From Yuukianura sp. NJ FZ-2021 (Eukaryota): a stretch of 64,000 nt of DNA. The stretch lies in contig CM102286.1 in assembly GCA_046563655.1 (NCBI GenBank), forward strand, positions 9,858,001-9,922,000, given 5' to 3'. Within the stretch, counting starts at the first letter, position 1. Every line of letters starts with the position of its first letter. Shown in pieces: positions 1 through 45,860 of the stretch. A model generated the notes under the pieces. That model was not told where the DNA came from, did not search any database, and saw only the letters and a program-made list of their open reading frames with translations. A program made the translations under genes and the position numbers.

Positions 1-12
1 GCCAAAAATGAG

Positions 13-10090: not shown

Positions 10091-10391
10091 GATGCTTGAT
10101 GTTATCAAAACTAACTTTGATCAGAAAACGAACAATTGTTTCCAAAAAAGCAAGTTTGCTCTGCTCGTGCTTCTTCAATAATTGCTTCCATCCCTACTTT
10201 CAAAAGAGCACGGCAAGAGCAGGAGCACGGTAAGCAAAACGGGAAGTTAGGATGCATTTCCTTGCTCTGTCGTTGCATTGCCAAAGCACGGCACGTGCAA
10301 GGCACAAGTAAGTTAGGATCGGTGATTTTTAACAAAAACAGCGCAGCAAAGCATCGTCAAGGCAGCAGCACGGTAAGTCCGTACCGAGCGT

Positions 10392-22900: not shown

Positions 22901-25900
22901 AAAATGCATTGTTCACAGCAACAGTATATAAACGGTCTTAAACGAATGAAGCTGTTGAAATTCTACAGCGATGTTTTTATTTCGGAAACTTAGGTCAAAT
23001 TTCAGGCACAACTTTTTAGAAATAAAAACGCTGGTAAAATGTTTTTTTAAACCCTAACATTCTAACCGCAACTTATTGAGTTTGGTAAAGTGTACCAGAA
23101 AAATTATACTTAGATGCGGGAAAATGAGGCCTGACAAGAGTTTTCTTTGAGTGTAAATTTAAAACTAAAGCTTAAACATATTTATGTTGTTAAATATGAC
23201 CAAGGTTGATGTAGAATTTCAACGCAACATATCCATAGTATGGTTACGTTTGAGACCAGTTAAAATTGAGTGACGTAACGACAAATGGTTCGTAGAGTTT
23301 TGACTGAAACAGGATGGAGATGTTAAAACCATTGTCAACAAGGAAGAAACGGCTGGATTACTGTAACCTATTTTTGAGTATTCAATTCTTACCAAATAAA
23401 TGGAAATGGTATCAGTTGTTTGAGAACATACAAAAACCCGTTTTAACGCTCAACGCAAATTAACAAATCAAAAATGCATTGTTCACAGCAACAGTATATA
23501 AACGGTCTTAAACGAATGAAGCTGTTGAAATTCTACAGCGATGTTTTTATTTCGGAAACTTAGGTCAAATTTCAGGCACAACTTTTTAGAAATAAAAACG
23601 CTGGTAAAATGTTTTTTTAAACCCTAACATTCTAACCGCAACTTATTGAGTTTGGTAAAGTGTACCAGAAAAATTATACTTAGATGCGGGCAAATGAGGC
23701 CTGACAAGAGTTTTCTTTGGGTGTAAATTTAAAACTAAAGCTTAAACATATTTATGTTGTTAAATATGACCAAGGTTGATGTAGAATTTCAACGCAACAT
23801 ATCCATAGTATGGTTACGTTTGAGACTTCAGTTAAAATTGAATGACGTAACGACAAATGGTTCGTAGAGTTTTGACTGAAACAGGCTGTAGATGTTAAAG
23901 CCGTTGTCAACAAGGAGAAGCGGCTGGATTACTGTAACCTTATTTTTGAGTATTCAATTCTTACCAAATAAATGGAAATGGTATCAGTTGTTTGAGAACA
24001 TACAAAAACCCGTTTTAACGCTCAACGCAAATTAACAAATCAAAAATGCATTGTTCACAGCAACAGTATATAAACGGTCTTAAACGAATGAAGCTGTTGA
24101 AATTCTACAGCGATGTTTTTATTTCGGAAACTTAGGTCAAATTTCAGGCACAACTTTTTAGAAATAAAAACGCTGGTAAAATGTTTTTTTAAACCCTAAC
24201 ATTCTAACCGCAACTTATTGAGTTTGGTAAAGTGTACCAGAAAAATTATACTTAGATGCGGGAAAATGAGGCCTGACAAGAGTTTTCTTTGAGTGTAAAT
24301 TTAAAACTAAAGCTTAAACATATTTATGTTGTTAAATATGACCAAGGTTGATGTAGAATTTCAACGCAACATATCCATAGTATGGTTACGTTTGAGACCA
24401 GTTAAAATTGAGTGACGTAACGACAAATGGTTCGTAGAGTTTTGACTGAAACAGGATGGAGATGTTAAAACCATTGTCAACAGGAAGAAACGGCTGGATT
24501 ACTGTAACCTATTTTTGAGTATTCAATTCTTACCAAATAAATGGAAATGGTATCAGTTGTTTGAGAACATACAAAAACCCGTTTTAACGCTCAACGCAAA
24601 TTAACAAATCAAAAATGCATTGTTCACAGCAACAGTATATAAACGGTCTTAAACGAATGTAGCTGTTGAAATTCTACAGCGATGTTTTTATTTCGGAAAC
24701 TTAGGTCAAATTTCAGGCACAACTTTTTAGAAATAAAAACGCTGGTAAAATGTTTTTTTAAACCCTAACATTCTAACCGCAACTTATTGAGTTTGGTAAA
24801 GTGTACCAGAAAAATTATACTTAGCTGAGGGCAAATGAGGCCTGACAAGAGTTTTCTTTGAGTGTAAATTTAAAACTAAAGCTTAAACATATTTATGTTG
24901 TTAAATATGACCAAGGTTGATGTAGAATTTCAACGCAACATATCCATAGTATGGTTACGTTTGAGACTTCAGTTAAAATTGAATGACGTAACGACAAACG
25001 GTTCGTAGAGTTTTGACTGAAACAGGCTGTAGATGTTAAAGCCGTTGTCAACAAGGAGAAGCGGCTGGATTACTGTAACTTATTTTTGAGTATTCAATTC
25101 TTACCAAATAAATGGAAATGGTATCAGTTGTTTGAGAACATACAAAAACCCGTTTTAACGCTCAACGCAAATTAACAAATCAAAAATGCATTGTTCACAG
25201 CAACAGTATATAAACGGTCTTAAACGAATGAAGCTGTTGAAATTCTACAGCGATGTTTTTATTTCGGAAACTTAGGTCAAATTTCAGGCACAACTTTTTA
25301 GAAATAAAAACGCTGGTAAAATGTTTTTTTAAACCCTAACATTCTAACCGCAACTTATTGAGTTTGGTAAAGTGTACCAGAAAAATTATACTTAGATGCG
25401 GGCAAATGAGGCCTGACAAGAGTTTTCTTTGGGTGTAAATTTAAAACTAAAGCTTAAACATATTTATGTTGTTAAATATGACCAAGGTTGATGTAGAATT
25501 TCAACGCAACATATCCATAGTATGGTTACGTTTGAGACTTCAGTTAAAATTGAATGACGTAACGACAAACGGTTCGTAGAGTTTTGACTGAAACAGGCTG
25601 TAGATGTTAAAGCCGTTGTCAACAAGGAGAAGCGGCTGGATTACTGTAACTTATTTTTGAGTATTCAATTCTTACCAAATAAATGGAAATGGTATCAGTT
25701 GTTTGAGAACATACAAAAACCCGTTTTAACGCTCAACGCAAATTAACAAATCAAAAATGCATTGTTCACAGCAACAGTATATAAACGGTCTTAAACGAAT
25801 GAAGCTGTTGAAATTCTACAGCGATGTTTTTATTTCGGAAACTTAGGTCAAATTTCAGGCACAACTTTTTAGAAATAAAAACGCTGGTAAAATGTTTTTT

Positions 25901-28900
25901 TAAACCCTAACATTCTAACCGCAACTTATTGAGTTTGGTAAAGTGTACCAGAAAAATTATACTTAGCTGAGAGCAAATGAGGCCTGACAAGAGTTTTCTT
26001 TGAGTGTAAATTTAAAACTAAAGCTTAAACATATTTATGTTGTTAAATATGACCAAGGTTGATGTAGAATTTCAACGCAACATATCCATAGTATGGTTAC
26101 GTTTGAGACCAGTTAAAATTGAGTGACGTAACGACAAATGGTTCGTAGAGTTTTGACTGAAACAGGATGGAGATGTTAAAGCCATTGTCAACAGGAAGAA
26201 ACGGCTGGATTACTGTAACCTATTTTTGAGTATTCAATTCTTACCAAATAAATGGAAATGGTATCAGTTGTTTGAGAACATACAAAAACCCGTTTTAACG
26301 CTCAACGCAAATTAACAAATCAAAAATGCATTGTTCACAGCAACAGTATATAAACGGTCTTAAACGAATGAAGCTGTTGAAATTCTACAGCGATGTTTTT
26401 ATTTCGGAAACTTAGGTCAAATTTCAGGCACAACTTTTTAGAAATAAAAACGCTGGTAAAATGTTTTTTTAAACCCTAACATTCTAACCGCAACTTATTG
26501 AGTTTGGTAAAGTGTACCAGAAAAATTATACTTAGCTGAGAGCAAATGAGGCCTGACAAGAGTTTTCTTTGAGTGTAAATTTAAAACTAAAGCTTAAACA
26601 TATTTATGTTGTTAAATATGACCAAGGTTGATGTAGAATTTCAACGCAACATATCCATAGTATGGTTACGTTTGAGACCAGTTAAAATTGAGTGACGTAA
26701 CGACAAATGGTTCGTAGAGTTTTGACTGAAACAGGATGGAGATGTTAAAGCCATTGTCAACAGGAAGAAACGGCTGGATTACTGTAACCTATTTTTGAGT
26801 ATTCAATTCTTACCAAATAAATGGAAATGGTATCAGTTGTTTGAGAACATACAAAAACCCGTTTTAACGCTCAACGCAAATTAACAAATCAAAAATGCAT
26901 TGTTCACAGCAACAGTATATAAACGGTCTTAAACGAATGAAGCTGTTGAAATTCTACAGCGATGTTTTTATTTCGGAAACTTAGGTCAAATTTCAGGCAC
27001 AACTTTTTAGAAATAAAAACGCTGGTAAAATGTTTTTTTAAACCCTAACATTCTAACCGCAACTTATTGAGTTTGGTAAAGTGTACCAGAAAAATTATAC
27101 TTAGCTGAGAGCAAATGAGGCCTGACAAGAGTTTTCTTTGAGTGTAAATTTAAAACTAAAGCTTAAACATATTTATGTTGTTAAATATGACCAAGGTTGA
27201 TGTAGAATTTCAACGCAACATATCCATAGTATGGTTACGTTTGAGACTTCAGTTAAAATTGAATGACGTAACGACAAATGGTTCGTAGAGTTTTGACTGA
27301 AACAGGCTGTAGATGTTAAAGCCATTGTCAACAGGAAGAAGCGGCTGGATTACTGTAACTTATTTTTGAGTATTCAATTCTTACCAAATAAATGGAAATG
27401 GTATCAGTTGTTTGAGAACATACAAAAACCCGTTTTAACGCTCAACGCAAATTAACAAATCAAAAATGCATTGTTCACAGCAACAGTATATAAACGGTCT
27501 TAAACGAATGAAGCTGTTGAAATTCTACAGCGATGTTTTTATTTCGGAAACTTAGGTCAAATTTCAGGCACAACTTTTTAGAAATAAAAACGCTGGTAAA
27601 ATGTTTTTTTAAACCCTAACATTCTAACCGCAACTTATTGAGTTTGGTAAAGTGTACCAGAAAAATTATACTTAGCTGAGAGCAAATGAGGCCTGACAAG
27701 AGTTTTCTTTGAGTGTAAATTTAAAACTAAAGCTTAAACATATTTATGTTGTTAAATATGACCAAGGTTGATGTAGAATTTCAACGCAACATATCCATAG
27801 TATGGTTACGTTTGAGACCAGTTAAAATTGAGTGACGTAACGACAAATGGTTCGTAGAGTTTTGACTGAAACAGGATGGAGATGTTAAAGCCATTGTCAA
27901 CAGGAAGAAACGGCTGGATTACTGTAACCTATTTTTGAGTATTCAATTCTTACCAAATAAATGGAAATGGTATCAGTTGTTTGAGAACATACAAAAACCC
28001 GTTTTAACGCTCAACGCAAATTAACAAATCAAAAATGCATTGTTCACAGCAACAGTATATAAACGGTCTTAAACGAATGAAGCTGTTGAAATTCTACAGC
28101 GATGTTTTTATTTCGGAAACTTAGGTCAAATTTCAGGCACAACTTTTTAGAAATAAAAACGCTGGTAAAATGTTTTTATGGAGATGTTAAAGCCATTGTC
28201 AACAGGAAGAAACGGCTGGATTACTGTAACCTATTTTTGAGTATTCAATTCTTACCAAATAAATGGAAATGGTATCAGTTGTTTGAGAACATACAAAAAC
28301 CCGTTTTAACGCTCAACGCAAATTAACAAATCAAAAATGCATTGTTCACAGCAACAGTATATAAACGGTCTTAAACGAATGAAGCTGTTGAAATTCTACA
28401 GCGATGTTTTTATTTCGGAAACTTAGGTCAAATTTCAGGCACAACTTTTTAGAAATAAAAACGCTGGTAAAATGTTTTTAAACCCTAACATTCTAACCGC
28501 AACTTATTGAGTTTGGTAAAGTGTACCAGAAAAATTATACTTAGCTGAGAGCAAATGAGGCCTGACAAGAGTTTTCTTTGAGTGTAAATTTAAAACTAAA
28601 GCTTAAACATATTTATGTTGTTAAATATCACCAAGGTTGATGTAGAATTTCAACGCAACATATCCATAGTATGGTTACGTTTGAGACCAGTTAAAATTGA
28701 GTGACGTAACGACAAATGGTTCGTAGAGTTTTGACTGAAACGGGATGGAGATGTTAAAGCCATTGTCAACAGGAAGAAACGGCTGGATTACTGTAACCTA
28801 TTTTTGAGTATTCAATTCTTACCAAATAAATGGAAATGGTATCAGTTGTTTGAGAACATACAAAAACCCGTTTTAACGCTCAACGCAAATTAACAAATCA

Positions 28901-30198
28901 AAAATGCATTGTTCACAGCAACAGTATATAAACGGTCTTAAACGAATGAAGCTGTTGAAATTCTACAGCGATGTTTTTATTTCGGAAACTTAGGTCAAAT
29001 TTCAGGCACAACTTTTTAGAAATAAAAACGCTGGTAAAATGTTTTTTTAAACCCTAACATTCTAACCGCAACTTATTGAGTTTGGTAAAGTGTACCAGAA
29101 AAATTATACTTAGCTGAGAGCAAATGAGGCCTGACAAGAGTTTTCTTTGAGTGTAAATTTAAAACTAAAGCTTAAACATATTTATGTTGTTAAATATGAC
29201 CAAGGTTGATGTAGAATTTCAACGCAACATATCCATAGTATGGTTACGTTTGAGACCAGTTAAAATTGAGTGACGTAACGACAAATGGTTCGTAGAGTTT
29301 TGACTGAAACAGGATGGAGATGTTAAAGCCATTGTCAACAGGAAGAAACGGCTGGATTACTGTAACCTATTTTTGAGTATTCAATTCTTACCAAATAAAT
29401 GGAAATGGTATCAGTTGTTTGAGAACATACAAAAACCCGTTTTAACGCTCAACGCAAATTAACAAATCAAAAATGCATTGTTCACAGCAACAGTATATAA
29501 ACGGTCTTAAACGAATGAAGCTGTTGAAATTCTACAGCGATGTTTTTATTTCGGAAACTTAGGTCAAATTTCAGGCACAACTTTTTAGAAATAAAAACGC
29601 TGGTAAAATGTTTTTTAAACCCTAACATTCTAACCGCAACTTATTGAGTTTGGTAAAGTGTACCAGAAAAATTATACTTAGCTGAGAGCAAATGAGGCCT
29701 GACAAGAGTTTTCTTTGAGTGTAAATTTAAAACTAAAGCTTAAACATATTTATGTTGTTAAATATGACCAAGGTTGATGTAGAATTTCAACGCAACATAT
29801 CCATAGTATGGTTACGTTTGAGACCAGTTAAAATTGAGTGACGTAACGACAAATGGTTCGTAGAGTTTTGACTGAAACAGGATGGAGATGTTAAAGCCAT
29901 TGTCAACAGGAAGAAACGGCTGGATTACTGTAACCTATTTTTGAGTATTCAATTCTTACCAAATAAATGGAAATGGTATCAGTTGTTTGAGAACATACAA
30001 AAACCCGTTTTAACGCTCAACGCAAATTAACAAATCAAAAATGCATTGTTCACAGCAACAGTATATAAACGGTCTTAAACGAATGAAGCTGTTGAAATTC
30101 TACAGCGATGTTTTTATTTCGGAAACTTAGGTCAAATTTCAGGCACAACTTTTTAGAAATAAAAACGCTGGTAAAATGTTTTTTTAAACCCTAACATT
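13951..30198. repeat. Tandem satellite, 569-571-bp unit, about 29 units (left array)
   Basis: The unit aacttattgagtttggtaaagtgtaccag...taacattctaaccgc repeats head to tail. Two subtypes (gagaccagtt vs gagacttcagtt) and one internally deleted unit at ~28178. Confidence 0.98.
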
Positions 30199-30410
30199 AG
30201 TAGCATGGTTGGTGTGTGCAAGAACGTAAAACGTTCTAGTTTCGAAAGTTGATTCATCGAGATAACTCAAACAAGAATGCAAGGTGAAGGTCCAAAGTAT
30301 TTGGCGGTTGAGTCATAGAATTAGGTCGTTAATAAGTCACATAAGAAGGTTAAGTTCAATGATGGCATTTTAATATCTTTGGAAATATTATTTGGTACAA
30401 AGTCTGATCT

Positions 30411-30562
30411 GTTTTCAAGGACGGAGGTGACTCACACCTTACGTGCACACGCGTGAACAAAGTCCAAAATCGTTTTTGTGTGGTCCAAAGTCCGACCCTT
30501 TTTCAAGGACGGTGGTGAGTCATGTCCTTAGGTGCACACGTGGGAACAAAGTCCAGAGTCGT
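30411..30562 (+). repeat. Two ~60-bp imperfect direct repeats (period ~89 bp) in the viral left terminus
   Basis: ttttcaaggacggaggtgactcacaccttacgtgcacacgcgtgaacaaagtcca vs ttttcaaggacggtggtgagtcatgtccttaggtgcacacgtgggaacaaagtcca. Confidence 0.85.
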
Positions 30563-30625
30563 ATGTTCATCGTCATTTCAATTTGTACTATTAATAGCCG
30601 GCCCTACAATTAGGTTTTGCGCATG

Positions 30626-30662
30626 TATATATATAGTAACGCTTGAGTTGTGAGAAGTCAGT
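30626..30662 (+). promoter_or_regulatory. Putative Pol II core promoter of the viral IAP (TATA plus arthropod TCAGT initiator)
   Basis: TATATATA at ~30626-30635, TCAGT at 30658-30662 about 30 bp downstream, ATG at 30672. Confidence 0.6.
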
Positions 30663-30671
30663 CAAAGGAAT

Positions 30672-31582
30672 ATGGAGGGCCTCATGAGTTATGAGGGGAG
30701 ACTACAAACGTTTCAGAACGCTCAAGTAATATGGCCATTGAATTTTGTGGCCCCGGAAGCATTTTCGTTTGCGGGATTTTTCTACCTCGGAGTAGATGAC
30801 AAGGTGGGTAATTTTCAACTTTTTCTAAAAAAGTAAAAAATTTGGAATAATTTGTTTTCTGTTGAACAGGTTGCGTGTCCATATTGCCGGGGTGTCGTTG
30901 GGGAATGGGTGGTTGGTGATGAGCCGTTGCTGGAACACCGGAAACATTTCCCACGCTGTCCGTATGTTGTAGTCATGACCGGTCTATTATCCGGGGTCGG
31001 GTTTGTTACCGTTCCGGATGTAACTGGGACCCACGGAGCCGAAGCGACCGGAGCAGCAAGGATTGATGTTTTCGAATATGTGACCACAGGAACCGGTATG
31101 CCCGGCACGGTAGCTTCTGATGTTTCCACCGACCCTGGCCAGATGGGAATAGATGTTGCCGGTGCTGGGACGAGAGGAATCGAGATGGCCGCAGCAGCCG
31201 CACCCGAAACCGACATGGCGGGAAGAACCAGGCCCGAAGCCGACATTCCCAGCGATGGAGGAGGAGGAGCCGATTTGGCCGGGTCGGCAACACGTTACGT
31301 GACAGAAATAACTAGCCTCGAAACTGATATTCCCAGTGTGGGTGGAACTGATGTTGCCGGGACATCTGAACATGTTTCAAGTGCGGCATCCGGCGTGTTG
31401 GCTACTGGTGTTACCAGAGACGACTCTGGCAACAGTATTACTTGTAAGATTTGTTGGGACAAAGAAGCCTGCGACGTATGCCATGTAAACATTTGGTTGC
31501 TTGTCCTACATGTTCATTGTCATTAAGAAGTTGTGCAGTTTGCCGAGAACCTATACTAATTAGATTAAGGGTGTATACTTAG
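30672..31582 (+). pseudogene. iap: Inhibitor of apoptosis (single BIR, low-complexity linker, RING); one intron; frameshift in the RING
   Basis: Exon 1 (30672-30803) RLQTF..WP..AGFFYLGVDDK; GT-AG intron 30804-30869; exon 2 VACPYC..W..GDEPLLEHRKHFPRC. RING CKICWD / PCKHLVACPTC..CAVCR is split by a frameshift near 31477. AATAAA at ~31689. Confidence 0.92.
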
Positions 31583-31814
31583 TCAAGTGTTGGTATTTTG
31601 TGTTGAGTTAGGTTAGCTAGGTTTTAGCTAGGTTTTAGGCTTTAGTTAGGTTTTGTTGCTGTGAGTTCGATTCCTACATTGAGAAATGAATAAAAAAAAA
31701 ATTCGATTCTTTGAAGTGTTTTCGTTTGATCTACGTTTTGTCATTTACTATTTAATGAAGTGAAATTTTTGAGTAAATAAACATTTGTTGTGAGAGCTAA
31801 GAAGAAGAAGAAGT

Positions 31815-34800
31815 ATGGAAGGGATCCGGAGATTTAAGTGTGACAATTGTGGCGACCGTTTCGATTCGCAAGATTCCTTTTGGGATCACGCTTTTGAACA
31901 TCATGTTTACGACCTTCGCATACCACGTCAAGGTATTTCTCTCAAAAAAAGAAAACGTACGCTTTTGGGTATCTTATAAAGTTGTGTAAATTTTGTTAGA
32001 GTGGGAACCAATAGACGGAGAAGTTGCGGGTCCAAGTCGTCCCAGGGTACCAGTCAATGACGAATCTGGAGCAAGGAATTTGGAAAGACCATTAGACCCA
32101 GTTGTAGATGCAATTTTAGAAGGGCTGCTTGATTATGAAGGTATTAGCAACAGAAAAAAAAAGAGTGATATGGATGGTTAGTCTTGAAAATAAAAGAAAT
32201 GGATTTTTCTGTAGAAGAATTGTCAGAAATTCAACAATCAGCCATGAATGAAGATTTGTCAAACTTTCGCGAGAGGTTCTGCTCACAATGTGCCATCAAG
32301 TTTGAGAATGCAGGAGAGCTCGACTACCATCGGTTTGAGTTTCATCGCGAACTTTACATTGATCAAATGGAAGGTCAACAGTGGGGAGGAACTCAAAGTG
32401 GGCTCGAGATTCGAGAAGTTCGGAGGGCTGGACGTCGGCGAAATGGCGCTGACGGTGGTATTGTACGTGAATTCGAGGTGGATTTGACTCCACAACTCTT
32501 TGCAGATGTGACGGGTGTGATGCGAAGTACAGCTAACGCGCTGACAACTTTGGTGGAAGGACTTCTTCAGGAGTTTGGGGGCATGAAGTTGATTTGTACG
32601 TTGGTTGCAGAGATGACAAGAACATCAAGGGAACGACCAGGTGAAGCCGAGGTGGAACGGTTTCCGTTCAACAGTTTTCTACATGGATGTTTTCATCAGA
32701 GTATGATTCAAACTATTTTGAGGCAAATGTATTCTAAAATGAGATTGTCTATGGAATCATTCGTTCACCACGGTTCGGGCTGGAAATTGAAGCGCTTCTT
32801 GGTACTTCAACTGAGAGTTTTCGAGTATAGGATGGACCGAGGGTCAAGTTGGATTCCGACTCCAAAAGTCATTCGCGACAAACGATGCATCATAAATATT
32901 CGTAACAATGACGAATTCTGCTTCAAGTACGCTATCATGGCAGAACTCAACCCACTTTACAAAAACCCAAATGTAGACTGGTACGCCTTTAACAATCCTA
33001 AAAATTATCAGACGGATCTTGGTAAGATTGACTGGGATTGTATAAATTTTCCGATGACCATCGCTCAACTTGACAAGTTCCATCACTTCAATCCACAGAT
33101 TGCTGTAAATGTGTTTGGTTACGAACCTCGAGACGAACTTGCTCCAAGTGTGAAAGGGAAAAAGAAGATTGATATTTTTCCTCTCTACGTATTTAGAGAA
33201 GCAAGAGCTAAAACTGTTGATTTGTTATTGTTAATCGACGGAAACAAGTCTCATTACACACTTTTGCGGCAAAGTGATTATAATCCTACGGAGGGCCTGT
33301 CTCGATTACTAGGAACAGGTGAACGGTGGTATGAAAAGTTTGTGTGTCGTTTTTGTATGTGTTTTTCAAAAAGCGAAAAGAAATTGCAAAATCACCAAAA
33401 GTTTTGTGCGGCGTTGGACGTACAACGTGTCGTTTTTCCAACCGAAATATACTTTACGTCAAGATTCCTCGTGCAACGTCTTCCTGTGCCCTATGTCATA
33501 TACTTAGATTTTGAAGCACTGTTAGTTCCAACAGACGGGATTGGTACTCGACAGATTGGTGACGTTTATAATGAACATTTAGACTGTGGGTGGTCAATGA
33601 GTATCATTGGGCCGGACGGTTATCTGGCGGACCGTGTAGTGACATTTTGTGGTCCGAATGCTGCACTAAGGTTGGTTGACGAACTCGTGTCTGTTGCCGG
33701 AAAGATATATCCAATTTTGAAAGAAGATGTTGGCCTCGACACACGATGGACAGAATCTGACTATGCTCACCTTTTGCTGGCTTCAACTCACTGTATTCAT
33801 TGTGGACTGGAGTTTGTGGAAGGGGTTGACACTAAGTGCATTGACCACTGCCATATTACATCAACCATTCGTGGAGTGAGTTGCGGTCCTTGTAACCTGA
33901 ACGCCCAAGTTTGTTCATTCATTCCAGTTGTTTGTCATGGTTTTCGACATTATGATTCGAAATTTATTGTACAAGCGTTGCGTGCTAGTACAATTAAATC
34001 TGTGGAAGTTTTGGCGAGCAGCAGCACCGAGAAGTTTACTGCGCTTCGGTTGACAACCCATGGAGATCATGTTCTGCGAATGATTGATTCGTATCAGTTT
34101 ATTAGTGCGAGCTTAGCAGAGCAAGTCAAAATGCTTGCCAAAGAAGGAAAAGATAAATTTGGTGTGACTTGTCACCATTTTCAACAGTACGGAAGTAAAA
34201 TTGAATTACTTTTAAGAAAAGGGGTTTACCCTTACAGTTACTTTGACTCCATGGAGCGATTTGATGAAACGTGTTTGCCACCTGCCGAAAAATGGAAAAG
34301 CGATTTGACTGGAAAATCCATCAGTCCTGAAGATTTGGAACATGCGCATACGGTTTGGCGGGAATTTGGCTGTCAAACATTGAGAGATTATCACAACTTG
34401 TACGTTTCTCTTGATGTTTGCCTCCTGGCGGATTGTTTCCAGAATATGAAAAGAAGTATGCTCGAGAGTTTCCGCCTGGATCCGGCGCACTATCTCACTC
34501 TTCCAGGAATAGCATACGACGCAGCAATGTTGGCAGGAAAAGTGGAGTACGAGTATCTGGATGAGATTGACAAGTACATGTATTTTGAACGCGGGATTCG
34601 GGGTGGAATTTGTTCTGTCGGACTACGTTATGCAAAAGCAAATAACCCTTACTTGTGGGATTTGTATGACCCGGCGCTTCTATTGAGTTACATTTGTTAC
34701 TGGGATGCAAACGCCTTGTACGCAACTTGTTTGAGGAACTACGTTCCGTGGAAAGATTTTGTGTAGGAAATGTCACTGGAAAACAGAACAAGAAATTTGG

Positions 34801-36085
34801 ATAGTGTCGTGAAGATGATCATGGATTTGGAGGATTGTGGTCCGGAGGGATTAGTTTTGGAGGTAGATTTGGATTATCCGCAAGAATTGCATGATTCTCA
34901 CAATGACTACCCATTAGCAGTACAGCGAAGTGAAATAACATACGATTGGCTCTCCGACTACACAAAAGAAGTTTTGAAGAACGTGGGAGCTACACCTGGA
35001 TCTTGCAAAAAAACAAAACTTTTCGGAACATTGTGTAACAAAAGAAACTACATTGTCCATTATCGACTTTTAAAGTTGTTTTTGGAGCTTGGACTGAAAC
35101 TTGTGAAGGTTCACAGAGCCATACGGTTTACACAAGCTCCATTATTTCGTGTATACACGGACATTTGTATAACACGTCGACGCGAAGCGACGAATCCGGT
35201 GGATAAGAACTTTTACAAGGCCATGGGAAACATTTTGGCGGGAAAAGTTTACCAAAATGTCCGGAAATATAGGCGGATCAACATTGCATTATCAAGAGAG
35301 AAGATGAGAGAATACGCCCGAAAGCCAACCGTTGAGGACGTCAAAATCATTCATGATGAGTGTGTTTTGTTTGTGATGAAAAAGTTGGCTGCTAGGCTAG
35401 ACAAACCTATTTTTGTTGGACAGTGCATTTTGGATGATTCCAAATGCAGAATGTGCAGTTTTTACTATAAGTGGTTAAAGCCGCGATATGGAGACAACAT
35501 GAGGCTGATGTATACGGATACGGATAGCTTCTTACTTCACATAAAAACGGAAGATGTTTATGCAGATATAGCTGAAAGTGTGAGGAGGAATGAAGGCGTC
35601 TTTGACACATCAAAGTACGACAGAGGAAATGAAAAATTTGGATATTTGTGGAGTGACCAATTTGAAGGGGTTGGTGGTTGCTTCAAGGACGAATGTGCCA
35701 ACGAAGTGATTTCGGAAGCAATAGCATTGAAGCCAAAAATGTATGCAATCAAGATGTTGAAGGACGATGGGACGCAAACTCAACTGAAGAAGGCAAAAGA
35801 AACAGTTCGCTCTGTTGTCGAGAATGAATTGGATTTTGAAGATTACAAAAAAGTTTTAGAAAACGGACGGTTCAAGTCTTGTAGTATGAATACAATTCGA
35901 AGTTTAAATCACCGTTTATATACAACTACAATGTACAAAAAAGTTTGTCAGCATATGAAGATAAGAGTTTTTATTTGTCTCCAATTGATTCATTAAGATT
36001 TGGTCATTATAGAATTGAATTAGAAAAGAATTTGCATCAAATTGTAGACGATTTGGAAGAAGATGAATCAAGCCAATTAGATTAA
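31815..36085 (+). pseudogene. polB: Protein-primed family B DNA polymerase with N-terminal C2H2 fingers and an inserted endonuclease VII/HNH-like domain
   Basis: Exo motifs YLDFEA and HGFRHYDS; Pol motifs YWDANALY, KAMGNILAGK, YTDTDS; insert CIHC..DHCH...RGVSCGPCN. In-frame TAG at 34764-34766, frameshift at the A-run near 35940, and predicted introns 31933-31999 and 32141-32214. Confidence 0.93.
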
Positions 36086-36128
36086 ATGTCCTTCCAGTTA
36101 GTAGTTGTTTGGGGTTTGATTTGTCAAG

Positions 36129-36788
36129 ATGGAAATTCAATGTTCATTGCAGCATCCGTTTGTCATGGTGTTGGCCGGTCCTACACAAAGTGGAAAAAGT
36201 ACATTGATTAAAAAAGTTTTGGAACGCATAGACGAAGTTGTTGAGCCAAAAATCAAGCGTATAATCTACTGTTATGCCGAGAATGAGCCGGATTTTGCAA
36301 AAAGTTTAAAAGGAGTTCACAGTGGAAAAGAAATTGAAATTGATTTTCGCCAAGGTATGAATCAAATTGATGTTGACATTGGAAACAAGACGCCAACTCT
36401 TGTTGTGTTGGATGACTTTATGGAAGACCTTGGATCATCCTTGGATATTTGTAGATTGGTAACTCGGGGTTCCCATCACCGTTCACTGTCTCTTATGATT
36501 ACGATTCAAAATTTTTTCTTTAAAGGATGTAGGAATTTGACTTTAAGTGCAAAATATGTTGCATTATTTCGAAATCCAAGGGATAAGACTATAATAAAAT
36601 ATTTGGGACGACAAATGAATGGCGGAAAAGCAAATTCGACGTTAGAAGAAGCATTTGAGGATGCTACAAAAAATAAGCCAAATAGCTATTTATTTTTAGA
36701 TATGTCTCAAAGTCAAAATGATGACTTTCGAATAAGATCAAATGTATTTGCAGATCCAGAATCTTGTCTAGTATATTTGAAAAAGTAA
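36129..36788 (+). CDS. Polinton-type genome-packaging ATPase (A32/FtsK-like)
   Basis: Walker A GPTQSGKS, Walker B LVVLDD, GSHHRSLS..ITIQN, FRNPRD and YLFLD motifs. Confidence 0.92.
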   Translation: MEIQCSLQHPFVMVLAGPTQSGKSTLIKKVLERIDEVVEPKIKRIIYCYAENEPDFAKSLKGVHSGKEIEIDFRQGMNQIDVDIGNKTPTLVVLDDFMEDLGSSLDICRLVTRGSHHRSLSLMITIQNFFFKGCRNLTLSAKYVALFRNPRDKTIIKYLGRQMNGGKANSTLEEAFEDATKNKPNSYLFLDMSQSQNDDFRIRSNVFADPESCLVYLKK

Positions 36789-36794
36789 CATACC

Positions 36795-37145
36795 TTAGTT
36801 TCGTTTCAATTTTGAAAGTCCTTCTGTGAGACAATCAAATAAATGGATTGGAATCACAGCACTAGATGCAGCATCGTAAACATTTTTAATATGTAAATGT
36901 GTGAGGGGTCCTTGGTCGTTTCCTTGTTCGTTGCCAATGTATAGCTGCCAACCATCTTCCAAATTAACTCGTGGTGGCGGATGTGGTTTAGGAAATTCTT
37001 GACGAACTTCAACTACCATTGCCAAAGATGTGACTTTGCGAGGAAGTTTGGGAATACGAACACGTTTGCGTTGCTTCTTTTCTTGGAGTTCTCCTGTGAT
37101 AAGATTTGGATTTAGGTTAAGAAAATCTTGAATTGGAGAATCCAT
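36795..37145 (-). CDS. Hypothetical viral protein with a basic NLS-like stretch
   Basis: Open frame MDSPIQDFLN..KKQRKRVRIPKLPRK.. tightly packed between the ATPase and the integrase; no family recognised. Confidence 0.5.
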   Translation of the reverse strand: MDSPIQDFLNLNPNLITGELQEKKQRKRVRIPKLPRKVTSLAMVVEVRQEFPKPHPPPRVNLEDGWQLYIGNEQGNDQGPLTHLHIKNVYDAASSAVIPIHLFDCLTEGLSKLKRN

Positions 37146-37303
37146 TTCGGATGACTTTTGTTCTGTTTTGTTGAGGTTACAGTTACAAGAAAATGTTTCA
37201 CAAACAGTAATTGTAGTAGTAGAATTTTTCTTGAAACAAAAATTTGCAAATGAACGCCAGAGAGAGCAAATTTGACATGAGCTCATGTCACGGAAAGTTA
37301 AAC

Positions 37304-38292
37304 TCAAGACTGAGGAATGCGTTGAAGTTCTTCGTTGTAAAATATTCCAAATATGTGTTCACCTTTGCCATCTTTTAACTTGTAGGTTACGGGTTGCGTA
37401 TTACAAACTTCAACAATTTGAAAAATTTCTTTTGTCCAGCTTTGGGCATATCCCTTTTCAAAAATCATTTTAGTTTTACTAATTATTACGGAGTCTCCGA
37501 CGTTGAAGTTAGGACGTTTGTGTTTTGCTTGGCTTTGTTTTGGTGAGTATCCGTACAAGTTTAGAAATACTTGAGTTTTTGTGTCTTCATTGACTTGATT
37601 TGGCGTAACATTTGATGGAACGATGATATGTGTTGTTGTATTATTATTATTATTATTATTATTAGTATTAGTATATTTACAATACTTTGCAAAACATCTA
37701 AAAATTTATTAGTCTGATTGTGTGTCATATATCTTGCCAACCTTCTCATTAATGTTTGGTTAAATCTTTCAACTATTACTGCCTTCAGTTCGGATCTAGT
37801 ACTAAAGTATGAAACAGAATGTTGTTTTAAAAGTTGTTTAACATTTTGATTTAAAAACTCTTTCCCTTCATCAAATTGAATTGACTTGGGAGGGCCTCTT
37901 TTCTTAAAAATTTTTTGCAACGCGTTTGCTACTTGACTTCCAGTTTTCTTTTTTAAAGGAATGACGTCAGCGACTTTAGAAAAACCGTCAATACAAGTTA
38001 ACAAGAAGTTATGATTCGTATTCGACTCGGAATACTTTGAAATGTCGATTAGGTCAATTATATACTGATATCTAATAGACGGTATAAAAACTTTTCGTCT
38101 TTTGTATCGTTTTCTAGCAGGTTTGTGAAGAGTATAAGCTGGAAGTTGTTCTAATGCTTTTAGTACACTTCTTTTGCTGAATCCATTTTTCTTTTGAGCT
38201 TGAAAAGTTCCTTCTAATCCAGAAAATGCAAAAGTTGAACGAGGATTAACGTATTCTTTACGAATTTTCTCTGTCAACTGTTTCTGTGCCAT
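37304..38292 (-). pseudogene. Polinton retroviral-like (rve/DDE) integrase, frameshifted
   Basis: YTLHKPARKRY, IIDLID, QFDEGKEF, VERFNQTL, YNNTYHRSIK, FNVGDSVIIS..FEKGY..WTKEIF..FYNEELQ. An (ATT)n insertion at ~37640-37672 breaks the frame. Confidence 0.93.
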
Positions 38293-38436
38293 TGTACAGA
38301 TTAAGTCTGACTACAAGAATTGGAGATGCAACAGTATATATCGTGGAGGTATATAAACGAGGTTAATCATTTGAAGTCTCAACATGAAACTGTTCACACC
38401 ACGTACAAAACAAGGCCGTGTGGTTGTTGGATCATC

Positions 38437-38772
38437 ATGTCTACAACTGTGAAAGAAAATTCTGATTTTTTGAGATATCTAATCAAGTGTTCACCCCAAC
38501 AAAGAAAAGCGTTAATTAAATATGCGAGTAGTGGTGAAGTCAAAAGTATTTGTGAATGTGTTTTGAATATATATAAAAAAAATGTTGGACTAAAAAAGTC
38601 GTCAATTGAAAAATTACGTCCATTCAAAAGAGCAATACTTTCAATTGTCAAGAGAAGAGGTTCATCGTTGGTCAAAAAGAAAAAACTTTTGTCTCAAAAG
38701 GGTGGTGCAATAATTCCTTTAATTTTAGGATCCATGATTCCAAGCGTTTTATCAGCAATTTTACAAAAATGA
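38437..38772 (+). CDS. Polinton/adintovirus small basic virion core-like protein
   Basis: Basic protein with ICECVLNI..L..KKKKLLSQKGG followed by a hydrophobic tail AIIPLILGSMIP; the GG/hydrophobic junction is an adenain-type cleavage context. Confidence 0.7.
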   Translation: MSTTVKENSDFLRYLIKCSPQQRKALIKYASSGEVKSICECVLNIYKKNVGLKKSSIEKLRPFKRAILSIVKRRGSSLVKKKKLLSQKGGAIIPLILGSMIPSVLSAILQK

Positions 38773-39285
38773 AACGAATGCGTCTAATTTCCGAATTAGA
38801 CTACAAGAACCTATACGAAGAACCAAAAAAGAAAAAAGTTCCCTTGAGTCATTAAAGACTGCTTATGGAAATGAAGATTTGGAACACAAGAAGCAAACAA
38901 TTTTATCTGTGGACGATGTACCAGATGACATCAAAGCTCTGTTGTATTATGATTTTTCTCGTCGACTATTACAAAAACGAAAACTTTTGTCAAATCGTCC
39001 AGTTTTAGTAAAATCTGTTTCTCCAGCAAATCCAAATTTGACATCAAACTATCCAAACAGCAATAGTAACAACCAATCCAACTTGTTACAAAAAATTGAG
39101 TATGTTACTGAACCATACATTTTAAAACAAGTACCAGGAAAGGATGCTAAAAAGTTTGTAAACTTTATGAAATTGAGTAATATTAGTTGGAATTCGGATT
39201 TGGAAATTTTAATTGATAATCAGCGTATTCCTTCTTCAAATATCATCAATGTCCTCTCCCAGTTTATTTCATTTAAAAAGCAACT
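38769..39285 (+). pseudogene. Conserved Polinton hypothetical protein, frameshifted and truncated by the satellite
   Basis: ATGA overlap with the upstream stop; MKRMRLIS.. / IL..PDDIKALLY.. / ISWN..EILID...IPSSNII pattern; the frame runs into satellite DNA at 39286. Confidence 0.6.
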
Positions 39286-42200
39286 TAACCGCAACTTATT
39301 GAGTTTGGTAAAGTGTACCAGAAAAATTATACTTAGATGCGGGCAAATGAGGCCTGACAAGAGTTTTCTTTGGGTGTAAATTTAAAACTAAAGCTTAAAC
39401 ATATTTATGTTGTTAAATATGACCAAGGTTGATGTAGAATTTCAACGCAACATATCCATAGTATGGTTAGGTTTAAGACTTCAGTTAAAATTGAGTGACG
39501 TAACGACAAATGGTTCGTAGAGTTTTGACTGAAACAGGCTGGAGATGTTGAAGCCATTGTCAACAAGAAGAAACGGCTGGATTACTGTAACTTATTTTTG
39601 AGTATTCAATTCTTACCAAATAAATGGAAATGGTATCAGTTGTTTGAGAACATACAAAAACCCGTTTTAACGCTCAACGCAAATTAACAAATCAAAAATG
39701 CATTGTTCACAGCAACAGCATATAAACGGTCTTAAACGAATGTAGCTGTTGAAATTCTACAGCGATGTTTTTATTTCGGAAACTTAGGTCAAATTTCAGC
39801 CACAACTTTTTAGAAATAAAAACGCTGGTAAAATGTTTTTTTAAACCCTAACATTCTAACCGCAACTTATTGAGTTTTATTAAAATGTACCAGAAAAAGT
39901 ATACTTAGATGCGGGCAAATGAGGCCTGACAAGAACTTTCTTTGAGTGTAAATTTAACACTAAAGCTTAAACATATTTATGTTGTTAAATATGACCAAGG
40001 TTGTTGTAGAATTTCAACGCAACATATCCATAGTATGGTTAGGTTTAAGACTTCAGTTAAAATTGAGTGATGTAACGACAAATGGTTCGTAGAGTTTTGA
40101 CTGAAACAGATTGTAGATGTTAAAGCCGTTGTCGACAAGGAGAAGCGGCTGGATTACTGTAACTTATTTTTGAGTATTCAGTTCTTACCAAATAAATGGA
40201 AATGGTATCAGTTGTTTGAGAACATACAAAAACCCGTTTTAACGCTCAACGCAAATTAACAAATCAAAAATGCATTGTTCACAGCAACAGTATATAAACG
40301 GTCTTAAACGAATGAAGCTGTTGAAATTCTACAGCGATGTTTTTATTTCGGAAACTTAGGTCAAATTTCAGGCACAACTTTTTAGAAATAAAAACGCTGG
40401 TAAAATGTTTTTTAAACCCTAACATTCTAACCGCAACTTATTGAGTTTGATAAAGTGTACCAGAAAAATTATACTTAGCTGAGGGCAAATGAGGCCTGAC
40501 AAGAGTTTTCTTTGAGTGTAAATTTAAAACTAAAGCTTAAACATATTTATGTTGTTAAATATGACCAAGGTTGATGTAGAATTTCAACGCAACATATCCA
40601 TAGTATGGTTACGTTTGAGACCAGTTAAAATTGAGTGACGTAACGACAAATGGTTCGTAGAGTTTTGACTGAAACAGGATGGAGATGTTAAAGCCATTGT
40701 CAACAGGAAGAAACGGCCGGATTACTGTAACCTATTTTTGAGTATTCAATTCTTACCAAATAAATGGAAATGGTATCAGTTGTTTGAGAACATACAAAAA
40801 CCCGTTTTAACGCTCAACGCAAATTAACAAATCAAAAATGCATTGTTCACAGCAACTGTATATAAACGGTCTTAAACGAATGTAGCTGTTGAAATTCTAC
40901 AGCGATGTTTTTATTTCGGAAACTTAGGTCAAATTTCAGGCACAACTTTTTAGAAATAAAAACGCTGGTAAAATGTTTTTTAAACCCTAACATTCTAACC
41001 GCAACTTATTGAGTTTGGTAAAGTGTACCAGAAAAAGTATACTTAGATGCGGGCAAATGAGGCCTGACAAGAGTTTTCTTTGAGTGTAAATTTAAAACTA
41101 AAGCTTAAACATATTTATGTTGTTAAATATGACCAAGGTTGATGTAGAATTTCAACGCAACATATCCATAGTATGGTTAGGTTTAAGACTTCAGTTAAAA
41201 TTGAGTGATGTAACGACAAATGGTTCGTAGAGTTTTGACTGAAACAGACTGTAGATGTTAAAGCCGTTGTCGACAAGGAGAAGCGGCTGGATTACTGTAA
41301 CTTATTTTTGAGTATTCAATTCTTACCAAATAAATGGAAATGGTATCAGTTGTTTGAGAACATACAAAAACCCGTTTTAACGCTCAACGCAAATTAACAA
41401 ATCAAAAATGCATTGTTCACAGCAACAGTATATAAACGGTCTTAAACGAATGAAGCTGTTGAAATTCTACAGCGATGTTTTTATTTCGGAAACTTAGGTC
41501 AAATTTCAGGCACAACTTTTTAGAAATAAAAACGCTGGTAAAATGTTTTTTTAAACCCTAACATTCTAACCGCAACTTATTGAGTTTGATAAAGTGTACC
41601 AGAAAAATTATACTTAGCTGAGGGCAAATGATGCCTGACAAGAGTTTTCTTTGAGTGTAAATTTAAAACTAAAGCTTAAACATATTTATGTTGTTAAATA
41701 TGACCAAGGTTGATGTAGAATTTCAACGCAACATATCCATAGTATGGTTAGGTTTAAGACTTCAGTTAAAATTGAGTGATGTAACGACAAATGGTTCGTA
41801 GAGTTTTGACTGAAACAGACTGTAGATGTTAAAGCCGTTGTCGACAAGGAGAAGCGGCTGGATTACTGTAACTTATTTTTGAGTATTCAATTCTTACCAA
41901 ATAAATGGAAATGGTATCAGTTGTTTGAGAACATACAAAAACCCGTTTTAACGCTCAACGCAAATTAACAAATCAAAAATGCATTGTTCACAGCAACAGT
42001 ATATAAACGGTCTTAAACGAATGAAGCTGTTGAAATTCTACAGCGATGTTTTTATTTCGGAAACTTAGGTCAAATTTCAGGCACAACTTTTTAGAAATAA
42101 AAACGCTGGTAAAATGTTTTTTTAAACCCTAACATTCTAACCGCAACTTATTGAGATTGATAAAGTGTACCAGAAAAATTATACTTAGCTGAGGGCAAAT

Positions 42201-43088
42201 GAGGCCTGACAAGAGTTTTCTTTGAGTGTAAATTTAAAACTAAAGCTTAAACATATTTATGTTGTTAAATATGACCAAGGTTGATGTAGAATTTCAACGC
42301 AACATATCCATAGTATGGTTACGTTTGAGACCAGTTAAAATTGAGTGACGTAACGACAAATGGTTCGTAGAGTTTTGACTGAAACAGGATGGAGATGTTA
42401 AAGCCATTGTCAACAGGAAGAAACGGCCGGATTACTGTAACCTATTTTTGAGTATTCAATTCTTACCAAATAAATGGAAATGGTATCAGTTGTTTGAGAA
42501 CATACAAAAACCCGTTTTAACGCTCAACGCAAATTAACAAATCAAAAATGCATTGTTCACAGCAACTGTATATAAACGGTCTTAAACGAATGTAGCTGTT
42601 GAAATTCTACAGCGATGTTTTTATTTCGGAAACTTAGGTCAAATTTCAGGCACAACTTTTTAGAAATAAAAACGCTGGTAAAATGTTTTTTTAAACCCTA
42701 ACATTCTAACCGCAACTTATTGAGTTTGGTAAAGTGTACCAGAAAAAGTATACTTAGATGCGGGCAAATGAGGCCTGACAAGAGTTTTCTTTGAGTGTAA
42801 ATTTAAAACTAAAGCTTAAACATATTTATGTTGTTAAATATGACCAAGGTTGATGTAGAATTTCAACGCAACATATCCATAGTATGGTTAGGTTTAAGAC
42901 TTCAGTTAAAATTGAGTGATGTAACGACAAATGGTTCGTAGAGTTTTGACTGAAACAGACTGTAGATGTTAAAGCCGTTGTCGACAAGGAGAAGCGGCTG
43001 GATTACTGTAACTTATTTTTGAGTATTCAATTCTTACCAAATAAATGGAAATGGTATCAGTTGTTTGAGAAAGTACAAAAACCCATTT
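39286..43088. repeat. Tandem ~570-bp satellite, about 6.7 units (right array)
   Basis: Same unit as 13951-30198, resuming in register at taaccgcaacttattgag, with several private variants. Confidence 0.97.
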
Positions 43089-45830: not shown

Positions 45831-45860
45831 AAACGATAAATTTTGCGATGTATTTAATTG

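Follow-up and report, generated by a model that had tools for sequence, protein, structure and literature searches.

A decayed Polinton/Maverick-type element with conserved predicted polymerase introns, inserted in a satellite array of Yuukianura sp.

A foreign block of 9087 nt (30199–39285) interrupts a satellite of ~570 bp in the window, that is, the whole 64,000-nt stretch of Yuukianura sp. NJ FZ-2021 DNA analysed here (contig CM102286.1). Sequence comparisons confirm that it is a real Polinton/adintovirus-like element with conserved predicted introns in its polymerase gene. We consider it probable that the block represents the left 9.1 kb of an intron-bearing Polinton/Maverick-type family, in a copy that is inert and was inserted incomplete. 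The initial annotation had proposed a Polinton/adintovirus-like element at exactly this place within the satellite, and both points hold: the satellite breaks precisely at the borders of the block, and Pfam domains, homologues of the protein-primed family B polymerase (pPolB) and a gene order collinear with the closest relative, the metagenome contig L034, all agree with the assignment.

The insertion site and the non-coding features of the left end are as follows:

14000..30198, no strand, satellite array, left part, running up to the last unit letter ahead of the insertion
30199..39280, + strand, element-derived DNA (9082 nt), left part of a Polinton/Maverick-type element, right side cut
39281..39285, no strand, junction letters (5 nt), matching neither other element copies nor in-register satellite
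39286..43000, no strand, satellite array, right part, resuming one unit letter beyond the stop of the left part
30199..30300, + strand, left terminal stretch, starting with AG
30393..30562, + strand, subterminal 88-nt direct repeat (1.9 copies, 81% matches)
30626..30636, + strand, TATA-like run, 36–46 nt before the IAP ATG
31689..31694, + strand, AATAAA, 107 nt past the IAP stop

The satellite unit measures 568–572 nt and is present in 36 copies in the window (counted with a 300-nt reference piece). Contigs from all four public DNA runs contain the uninterrupted satellite, in which 30198 is joined to 39286 with one extra letter, so that one base was lost and none duplicated at the insertion and the satellite runs across it without a 6-bp target-site duplication (TSD). 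The absence of a TSD fits an end-joining insertion of a truncated copy and is silent on full-length copies. In contigs from host DNA runs, other copies start at 30199 beside unrelated DNA and run past 39280, with at least 255 nt of further sequence; position 30199 is thus the true terminus of the element, as had been proposed for the satellite junction, and the adjoining DNA differs between copies. The five junction letters, together with the preceding base, repeat a 7-mer 7 nt downstream. Searches of the window with blastn and tblastx recovered neither a second copy of the element nor an inverted partner, only the 88-nt repeat. Because the copy stops short on the right, at 39280, it lacks the capsid/protease module, and none of the 12 window ORFs scanned against Pfam matched a capsid or protease.

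Two interrupted genes, an inhibitor-of-apoptosis (IAP) gene and the polymerase gene, occupy the left end of the element:

30672..30803, + strand, IAP exon 1, first BIR half (Pfam model positions 1–37)
30804..30869, + strand, predicted IAP intron, 66 nt, phase 0, AAG/GTGGGT...AACAG/, GC 0.24, in-frame TAA
30870..31582, + strand, IAP exon 2, second BIR half, Gly/Ala/Thr-rich linker, RING
31815..31932, + strand, pPolB exon 1, ATG and C2H2 zinc finger (zf-C2H2_4, E 1.4e-4, below cut-off)
31933..31999, + strand, predicted pPolB intron A, 67 nt, phase 1, AAG/GTATTT...GTTAG/, GC 0.28
32000..32140, + strand, pPolB exon 2, conserved motif, then acidic stretch
32141..32214, + strand, predicted pPolB intron B, 74 nt, phase 1, AAG/GTATTA...TGTAG/, GC 0.28
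32215..36034, + strand, pPolB exon 3, second zinc finger, His-Me/Endonuclease_7-like insert, polymerase

The BIR domain is found in two pieces, model positions 1–37 in 30672–30836 and 35–69 in 30852–31526 (20.8 and 34.8 bits), which become contiguous once the 66-nt intron is taken out. It is followed by the C-terminal RING half of the IAP type (PF13920) in 31481–31579, read in a shifted frame (E 1.1e-6, 28.8 bits; cut-off 27), and the gene thereby has both parts of a BIR plus RING E3 protein. The frame change lies at 31478/31479, within the RING, and the gene is broken in the window copy; four extra letters at this position account for about half of the depth in three runs, depth figures not being read as copy numbers. 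The three indels listed for exon 2 in other copies measure 3, 6 and 6 nt, each divisible by three. The TATA-like run upstream is a candidate promoter element, and the AATAAA downstream could serve as a poly(A) signal, both judged by motif and position. In the polymerase gene, Endonuclease_7 and DNA_pol_B_2 were matched in 32184–34766.

When the exons are joined, no internal stops remain (IAP, 247 aa; pPolB, 936 aa up to its first break), and each of the three introns carries an in-frame stop if retained. All three have the sequence features of spliceosomal (U2-type) introns, namely GT-AG borders, a pyrimidine-rich acceptor and restoration of the frame, and with a GC content of 0.24–0.28 they differ from the exons (0.46–0.54). 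Introns of similar size, ~60–100 nt as estimated by eye and one perhaps of ~40 nt, occur in an EFHC2-like host gene that also lies in the window. The earlier proposal of three GT-AG introns of 66, 67 and 74 nt, in the right phases and with in-frame stops, could be reproduced to the base. Because the splice sites were picked so that the frames fit, the agreement in phase is weak evidence taken alone. No other copies of any of the three introns were found in the window by blastn; diverged copies in host reads span introns A and B (run X3, record 16; run X4, record 24), and no intron-removed contig occurs among the joints listed for the four host DNA runs. Together these features suggest that the three introns are spliced. 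An in-frame ATG at 32199, within intron B, could start the window polymerase without splicing.

The conservation of the polymerase introns is best seen in relatives. Among 7999 scored candidates, 185 pPolB homologues were found with E ≤ 0.001, and those with named hosts come from molluscs, a sponge, a coral, a fly and a snake; one of the homologues (P0001) aligns with the window polymerase over its residues 22–1250 in a single HSP. The closest relative found, L034, has a pPolB that is 44% identical and is collinear with the block over 32005–39022, with the same gene order and with open polymerase, ATPase and integrase genes. Its exon 2137–2260 is the counterpart of exon 1 in the window (with a zinc finger that likewise stays below the Pfam cut-offs), its phase-1 intron 2261–2355 sits at the position of intron A, and its intron 2668–2749 shares junction and phase 1 with intron B. 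The motif of exon 2 (32005–32046) matches L034 2358–2399 in 11 of 14 residues by tblastx, in the frame predicted by splicing. With one additional intron, the four joined exons of L034 encode 1391 aa without a stop, and since no ATG lies ahead of the conserved zinc finger, the L034 polymerase ORF needs the start in exon 1. A second relative, L035, keeps the last junction (GGAG/GT...AG/TGC); as a single metagenome yielded both L034 and L035, they count as one independent lineage beside the window. Relatives that lack the intervening sequences had been named in the initial annotation as evidence that would speak against splicing; instead, both pPolB introns recur in L034. Conservation of the junctions across 44% identity implies inheritance within the element lineage, and as the polymerase ORF is unbroken in nine relatives that are more distant, the introns look lineage-specific. 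The IAP intron has no counterpart for comparison in L034, which is without an IAP gene. Two to three N-terminal C2H2 fingers are fused to pPolB in one ORF in four homologues (P0014, P0025, P0026 and P0027), and the finger pattern occurs in the first 330 aa of 13 of the 120 matches listed. The exon 2 peptide had no match at E ≤ 10 in any of 22 longer candidate proteins.

To the right of the polymerase, the element carries intronless genes on both strands, for the ATPase, the integrase and three small conserved ORFs:

36129..36788, + strand, packaging-type ATPase, A32/IVa2-like, intact
36795..37286, − strand, conserved ORF, ~163 aa, intact
37304..38292, − strand, rve integrase, broken by a frame change
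38437..38772, + strand, small basic protein, 111 aa, with hydrophobic C-terminal tail, intact
38769..39280, + strand, last ORF, cut off by the element end

The ATPase is 52% identical to that of L034 over 212 of 212 residues, and its place beside pPolB is conserved there. Its Pfam matches are all below the cut-offs (AAA_14, 2.1e-5; Adeno_IVa2, 0.005; in L034, Pox_A32, 1.5e-4). The rve domain is matched in 37561–38292 (E 2.5e-11; 7.5e-12 in L034). Pfam matches were thus found for the IAP, pPolB, packaging ATPase and integrase genes previously named, that for the ATPase being weak; the "core-like" genes proposed for the right-hand part could not be substantiated, as these ORFs belong to no Pfam family in either the window or L034. 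The minus-strand ORF is 37% identical to residues 1–172 of a 173-aa ORF of L034, with no Pfam family and no usable match in the ESM Atlas (170-aa query). The 111-aa protein is 47% identical to a 109-aa ORF of L034, which in the ESM Atlas shows a feature likeness of 0.94 to clusters of hypothetical proteins of 108–115 aa, some of them labelled Preplasmiviricota.

The window copy is dead and unable to express working genes, being inert through a TAG stop in pPolB (34764–34766), frame changes in four genes and the cut at 39280; the initial annotation mentions none of these, nor the missing TSD. The tblastn HSP runs unbroken across the TAG in 27 of 30 homologues, which align there in one frame, and an interpretation of the TAG as part of another intron was therefore ruled out; no variant at the TAG was found among the 40 rows listed for other copies (619 further rows exist). 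Besides the IAP gene, the frame is changed in pPolB near 35936, where three runs have one more letter, in the integrase and in the last ORF, and other host copies differ in length at these places. The integrase change falls at a (TAT)12 microsatellite (37639–37674), in the interval 37610–37675, and splits the gene into two tblastn HSPs in different frames, between which residues 213–223 of L034 are missing. In the last ORF it lies between about 38805 and 38879, with an extra letter at 38824 in all four runs. Internal deletions also occur in other family copies, whose joints skip 497, 583 and 2652 nt.

In the model that we propose, the left end of the family would consist of Pol II-type transcription units, a one-intron gene for an anti-apoptotic IAP and a spliced polymerase gene. 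The pPolB mRNA would need splicing, of two introns here and three in the relatives, by which the exon with the ATG and C2H2 finger and the exon with the acidic linker would be joined to the large polymerase exon. The rightward genes (ATPase, minus-strand ORF and rve integrase, small plus-strand ORFs) are intronless. Such a lineage would be transcribed in the nucleus, and expression of its replication gene would rely on the spliceosome of the host. As to the copy in the window, an incomplete linear DNA probably entered the satellite, with its left end being the true terminus and its right end an internal breakpoint that end joining closed, leaving 5 nt of filler and costing one satellite base. 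The TAG and the frame changes may have arisen after insertion or have been copied along.

Two other readings of the intervening sequences have to be considered. The upstream exons might form a separate small zinc-finger gene similar to the "Oncoid" ORFs that precede PolB in adintoviruses, with only intron A being real and pPolB starting at the ATG at 32199, a start that is indeed available in frame. Read-through of intron B would end the frame after 13 codons and yield a plausible protein of ~100 aa, and small ORFs with Cys motifs upstream of PolB are reported for adintoviruses in the available parts of Starrett et al. (2021, PMC8502044). However, the L034 polymerase ORF has no such ATG before its conserved second zinc finger, the last junction is kept in L034 and L035 with a phase (1 in L034 and the window) that fits the polymerase frame, and zinc fingers are fused to pPolB in single ORFs of relatives; alternative splicing, moreover, could give both products. 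We regard a separate gene as improbable. Still less credible, and in our view very improbable, is that the intervening sequences stem from small insertions or from the decay of dead copies, with GT-AG borders and frames arising by coincidence. The window copy is plainly decayed elsewhere, and short "introns" in vertebrate Mavericks were considered likely insertions in the sections available of Barreat and Katzourakis (2021, PMC8097293), but coincidence would have to produce the same junctions and phases in L034, where the genes are open and splice to 1391 aa, and again a junction in L035; it would also have to account for a BIR domain rebuilt exactly by intron removal, for the AT-richness and host-like size of the introns, and for diverged host-read copies that span the same intervals.

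A further alternative concerns the history of the insertion alone: a full-length element with a TSD would have integrated, and its right half would have been lost later by deletion or satellite recombination. Satellite arrays often recombine, and the internal deletions in other family copies lend this scenario some weight. Yet with only one satellite base missing, such a deletion must have ended within one or two bases of the element's former right border and also removed the TSD, and a 5-nt filler that repeats nearby satellite would fit end joining as the element went in. We therefore think later deletion unlikely, if less so than the two readings above, and favor the insertion of an already incomplete copy.

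The element shares with Polintons/Mavericks the protein-primed family B polymerase, an rve integrase (broken here), an FtsK/A32-type ATPase, its presence in multiple copies and a terminus that starts with 5'-AG. Kapitonov and Jurka are said to have described in 2006 that Polinton termini begin in this way. According to the accessible parts of Barreat and Katzourakis (2021, PMC8097293), intact vertebrate Mavericks are intronless and have terminal inverted repeats and a 6-bp TSD, whereas we find conserved GT-AG introns in the polymerase gene and a further one in the IAP gene, in a window copy without TSD, right end, capsid or protease genes. Adintovirus contigs carry homologues of IAP and Bcl2 (Starrett et al., 2021, PMC8502044, in the portions available), and our element resembles them, by description, in being associated with animals, in combining PolB with an integrase and in carrying accessory genes ahead of PolB; the nearest pPolB found, that of L034, is however only 44% identical. 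The text of Starrett et al. (2021, PMC8502044) contains no instance of "splic", and its sole mention of "intron" concerns group II introns. Spliceosomal-type introns inside Polinton-like elements have a parallel in the maverick-polinton-like proviruses of dinoflagellates, whose mobile introner families were mostly acquired after integration, as far as the text seen of Gozashti et al. (2025, PMC11957031) goes. In contrast to introners, the introns described here are short and single-copy in the window, and the pPolB junctions are conserved at 44% identity. In its predicted mode of expression, with nuclear Pol II transcription and the spliceosome, the element would work like adenoviruses and adomaviruses, although it belongs to neither family. 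Adenoviruses are nuclear DNA viruses whose Pol II transcripts are processed by the host spliceosome. For adomaviruses, the use of splice acceptors by late genes is described in the excerpt available of a preprint (bioRxiv 10.1101/341131). Both use leaders and alternative splicing of long transcripts, while here short introns break individual coding sequences.

A lineage with conserved polymerase introns would be mis-annotated by pipelines that take genes to be intronless. Surveys of Polintons, Mavericks and Polinton-like viruses (PLVs) usually rely on prokaryote-style ORF finders, on the stated premise that introns are absent (Bellas et al., 2023, PMC10120064, in the sections available), and the same ground for gene calling is given in the parts seen of a Tetraselmis PLV preprint and of Barreat and Katzourakis (2021, PMC8097293); P0001, for instance, is without its three leading exons. 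An intron-bearing lineage of this kind would also point to nuclear expression that depends on Pol II and the spliceosome, which bears on the site and mode of replication. It is tempting, although speculative and rather unlikely, to go further and assume that the replication gene is obligatorily dependent on the host spliceosome, that the introns have a regulatory role and that the insertion is a fragment captured from a free linear genome. If so, keeping or splicing out the introns could decide whether a short zinc-finger protein, a polymerase truncated at its N terminus or the full polymerase is made, intron-bearing transcripts could mimic host genes and evade defences against intronless mobile DNA, and the truncated insertion without TSD would be a piece of free linear genome joined at a chromosome break. 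With one true terminus and an internal breakpoint with filler and no TSD, the insertion is itself a small indication that incomplete linear copies occur and that host repair can capture them.

As a lead only, the left terminal stretch (30199..30300), which has no inverted partner within the window, may be a terminal inverted repeat of ~100 nt: contigs in runs X2 and X3 match it through 30300 and diverge after.

The satellite array runs from ~14,000 to ~43,000 with a unit of 568-572 nt, and 36 copies of a 300-nt satellite reference piece lie in the window; GC is 0.33. When the junctions were aligned to neighbouring units, the satellite was found to halt at 30198 and to restart at 39286, which delimits a foreign block of 9087 nt (30199-39285). 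The initial annotation had placed a Polinton/adintovirus-like element with spliced genes here; its borders proved exact to the nucleotide, its account of the satellite setting holds, and its identification of the element is borne out by a gene set and a terminus shared with Polintons/Mavericks and the proposed adintoviruses. The element is a real member of this group, represented here by a dead and truncated copy. Pfam scans and comparison with relatives give the following map:

30672-30836, IAP BIR, piece 1 (model positions 1-37; Pfam)
30852-31526, IAP BIR, piece 2 (model positions 35-69; Pfam)
31481-31579, C-terminal half of the IAP RING, in a shifted frame (PF13920, E 1.1e-6, 28.8 bits, cut-off 27)
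31815 to ~36034, protein-primed PolB (pPolB) with an Endonuclease_7-like insert
36129-36788, ATPase (52% identity to that of L034, a metagenome contig with a related polymerase; weak matches to the Pox_A32, Adeno_IVa2 and AAA families)
36795-37286, minus strand, conserved ORF with no function assigned
37304-38292, minus strand, rve integrase
38437-38772, small basic protein with a hydrophobic tail
from ~38769, last ORF

Among 7999 scored candidates, 185 pPolB homologues had E <= 0.001, the best match (P0001) showing 44% identity over 99% of the query. The label "core-like" given earlier to the right-hand ORFs found no Pfam family in its support; by language-model features, the small basic protein resembles clusters of 108-115-aa hypothetical proteins, partly labelled Preplasmiviricota. 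For adintoviruses, homologues of IAP have been noted, as have small ORFs with Cys motifs lying upstream of PolB (PMC8502044). The insert in the polymerase is a His-Me finger (Endonuclease_7; 33738-33899, residues ~519-572, Pfam E 1e-5), and among the 120 pPolB homologues listed from animals and metagenomes, many have PF02945 precomputed; Jeong et al. (2023, PMC10748475) call an HNH insert peculiar to oomycete/nematode pPolB2. The window has a direct repeat of 88 nt in a subterminal position (30393-30562, 1.9 copies, 81% matches), and L034 has, similarly placed upstream of the polymerase gene (1629-1944), a pair of similar stretches ~180 nt apart, recognized as two similar ORF translations. These repeats may be regulatory or origin-related.

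Three intervals within the IAP and pPolB genes are predicted to be introns (a slash marks the exon boundary):

30804-30869, IAP intron, 66 nt, phase 0, donor AAG/GTGGGT, acceptor TTTTCTGTTGAACAG/, GC 0.24
31933-31999, pPolB intron A, 67 nt, phase 1, donor AAG/GTATTT, acceptor AATTTTGTTAG/, GC 0.28
32141-32214, pPolB intron B, 74 nt, phase 1, donor AAG/GTATTA, acceptor TTTTTCTGTAG/, GC 0.28

Their placement in the initial annotation was correct in sites, lengths, phases and the in-frame stop that each interval introduces when retained. The GC content of 0.24-0.28 contrasts with 0.46-0.54 in the exons, and the joined exons stay open until the gene's first break (IAP 247 aa, pPolB 936 aa). Frame fit by itself is weak evidence, since the splice sites were picked to fit. 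The case is instead made by three independent lines: removal of the 66 nt makes the BIR pieces contiguous along the Pfam model, L034 has the same architecture, and L035, a second contig from the metagenome of L034, retains the last junction. Resting on this comparison with relatives, the predicted introns are well supported. An in-frame ATG lies at 32199, inside intron B, from which an N-terminally shorter polymerase could be made from unspliced RNA; L034 lacks such an ATG.

L034, the closest relative found (9680 nt, pPolB 44% identical), is collinear with window positions 32005-39022 and repeats the same arrangement upstream of its polymerase ORF (contig positions):

2137 (ATG) to 2260, exon 1, with a C2H2 finger inside
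2261-2355, first intron, phase 1
exon 2, with the conserved motif also present in window exon 2 (11 of 14 residues shared), read in the frame predicted by the splice model
2422-2508, extra intron
2668-2749, last intron, phase 1, directly 5' of the polymerase ORF

Together the four exons encode 1391 aa free of stops, and the ATPase and integrase are likewise open. The polymerase ORF has no ATG upstream of the conserved second finger, and the start in exon 1 is therefore needed. The initial annotation had left its intron claim to be judged by intact relatives, and L034, apparently such a relative, keeps the pPolB introns; L035 (~74% identical to P0001) does so for the last junction, with small indels within the intron. 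Introns A and B are also spanned by more diverged copies in host reads (records 16 and 24), and among the joints listed in contigs from public DNA runs none removes an intron.

In nine relatives at a greater distance (L001-L008 and L036; 28-32% identity), a single ORF of 1229-1388 aa encodes the polymerase and has a Met among its first 2-18 codons; the introns therefore appear to be a trait of the sub-lineage of the window element and L034, and not of Polintons generally. The predicted spliced product has a known architecture, since two or three N-terminal C2H2 fingers are fused without interruption to pPolB in P0014, P0025, P0026 and P0027; a C2H2 finger pattern occurs in the first 330 aa of 13 of the 120 listed pPolB matches. 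A published description has intact vertebrate Mavericks lacking introns, "in agreement with" Kapitonov and Jurka 2006 (PMC8097293), and large surveys assume endogenous polinton-like viruses to be intron-free (PMC10120064; bioRxiv 10.1101/2022.05.02.489867). The printed exception found is that maverick-polinton-like proviruses of dinoflagellates contain mobile "introners", most of which were acquired after integration (PMC11957031). A full-text literature search, outside whose scope lay the 2006 article by Kapitonov and Jurka, that of Pritham et al. (2007) and the Repbase annotations, returned no description of conserved spliceosomal introns in a Polinton polymerase.

The window copy itself is dead. 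Its pPolB is interrupted by a TAG at 34764-34766, a position that a single HSP spans for 27 of 30 homologues (the remaining three, being shorter proteins, end before it), and the final 34 polymerase residues lie in another frame after a change near 35936. Further frame changes affect the IAP RING (31478/31479), the integrase (somewhere in 37610-37675, where a (TAT)12 microsatellite lies; 11 L034 residues are unmatched) and the last ORF (between ~38805 and 38879). The microsatellite, at 37639-37674 within the integrase coding sequence, reads as an Ile or Asn run depending on frame, and reads at 37627-37684 were skipped as repeat in the read comparison. Other copies differ in length behind 31478 (about half of the depth, three runs) and at 35936 (three runs), 37293, 37607 and 38824 (four of four runs); a part of these breaks may be confined to the window copy or its assembly. 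Three other indels listed in IAP exon 2 of other copies keep the reading frame, being 3, 6 and 6 nt long.

The element is multi-copy in the four public DNA runs whose contigs were compared with it (X1-X4). Of 97 contig pieces in X1, 54 match at >=99% identity, 23 at 95-99% and 20 at 90-95%, and the other runs are similar; X2, whose label gives a second organism, contains 54% of the words sampled from the element, with 22 of 72 contig pieces at >=99% identity, and also the same satellite at ~97% identity. Other copies carry internal deletions, visible as joints that leave out 497, 583 and 2652 nt, and have a replaced stretch of 268 nt located between integrase and small ORF. Position 30199 is a true element end, because contigs from X1 and X2 begin to match there after unrelated flanking DNA; the terminus starts with AG, as the termini of Polintons do. 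The right side is cut internally at 39280, within the last ORF, because contigs from X1, X2 and X3 match up to this point and then continue for up to 255 nt absent from the window.

Neither the junction alignment nor the contigs of the uninterrupted unit revealed a target-site duplication at the block borders, since the satellite unit keeps its register on the far side of the block, less one base and with none duplicated. That uninterrupted unit, 30198 joined to 39286 with one base between, occurs in contigs from all four runs that contain the element. The five letters at 39281-39285 are foreign to both the element copies and the satellite in register; together with the preceding base they repeat a satellite 7-mer 7 nt downstream. 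We suggest that the satellite was broken and took up a linear copy that was incomplete, and that microhomology-guided end joining, with a templated filler, closed the right side of this copy, in which case normal two-ended integrase action would have had no part in this insertion. Deletion of the right half after insertion of a fuller element would also leave a truncated copy; it is less likely, as such a deletion must have stopped within 1-2 bases of the original boundary and also have erased the target-site duplication. A perfect 302-nt internal tandem duplication in one satellite unit (27876-28480, 2.0 copies, 100% matches) is the source of an odd 302-nt spacing in the array.

In the family as a whole, genes would be transcribed by nuclear Pol II and their introns excised by the host spliceosome; a TATA-like run lies 36-46 nt upstream of the IAP ATG and an AATAAA 107 nt downstream of the IAP stop. 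The IAP might delay death of the host cell, the polymerase would bear a zinc finger plus an acidic linker at its N-terminus, the rve integrase would carry out integration, and the ATPase would package the genome in full-length copies, which presumably bear the virion module.

The host is an animal, and an EFHC2-like gene of its own, with DM10 domains, lies at 60365-63126 in about nine blocks separated by short introns. Its best named matches are fish EFHC2 (54-59% identity) and a beetle protein (52%), while a metagenome protein reaches 82%. The element introns are similar in size to those of this gene, since the latter read by eye as ~60-100 nt (one perhaps ~40 nt), with GTAAG or GTGAG donors. 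The flanks are otherwise rich in transposons by Pfam (1-5426, 9302-10120, 45858-46640 and 53821-57190):

1-747, DUF5641, which we take to be a BEL/Pao-type integrase tail
2503-5426, LINE with Exo_endo_phos endonuclease and RVT_1
9302-10120, minus strand, MADF-domain ORF
45858-46640, RVT_1 fragment
53821-55431, minus strand, RVT_1 fragment
55724-57190, minus strand, ORF with an RFX-like DNA-binding match
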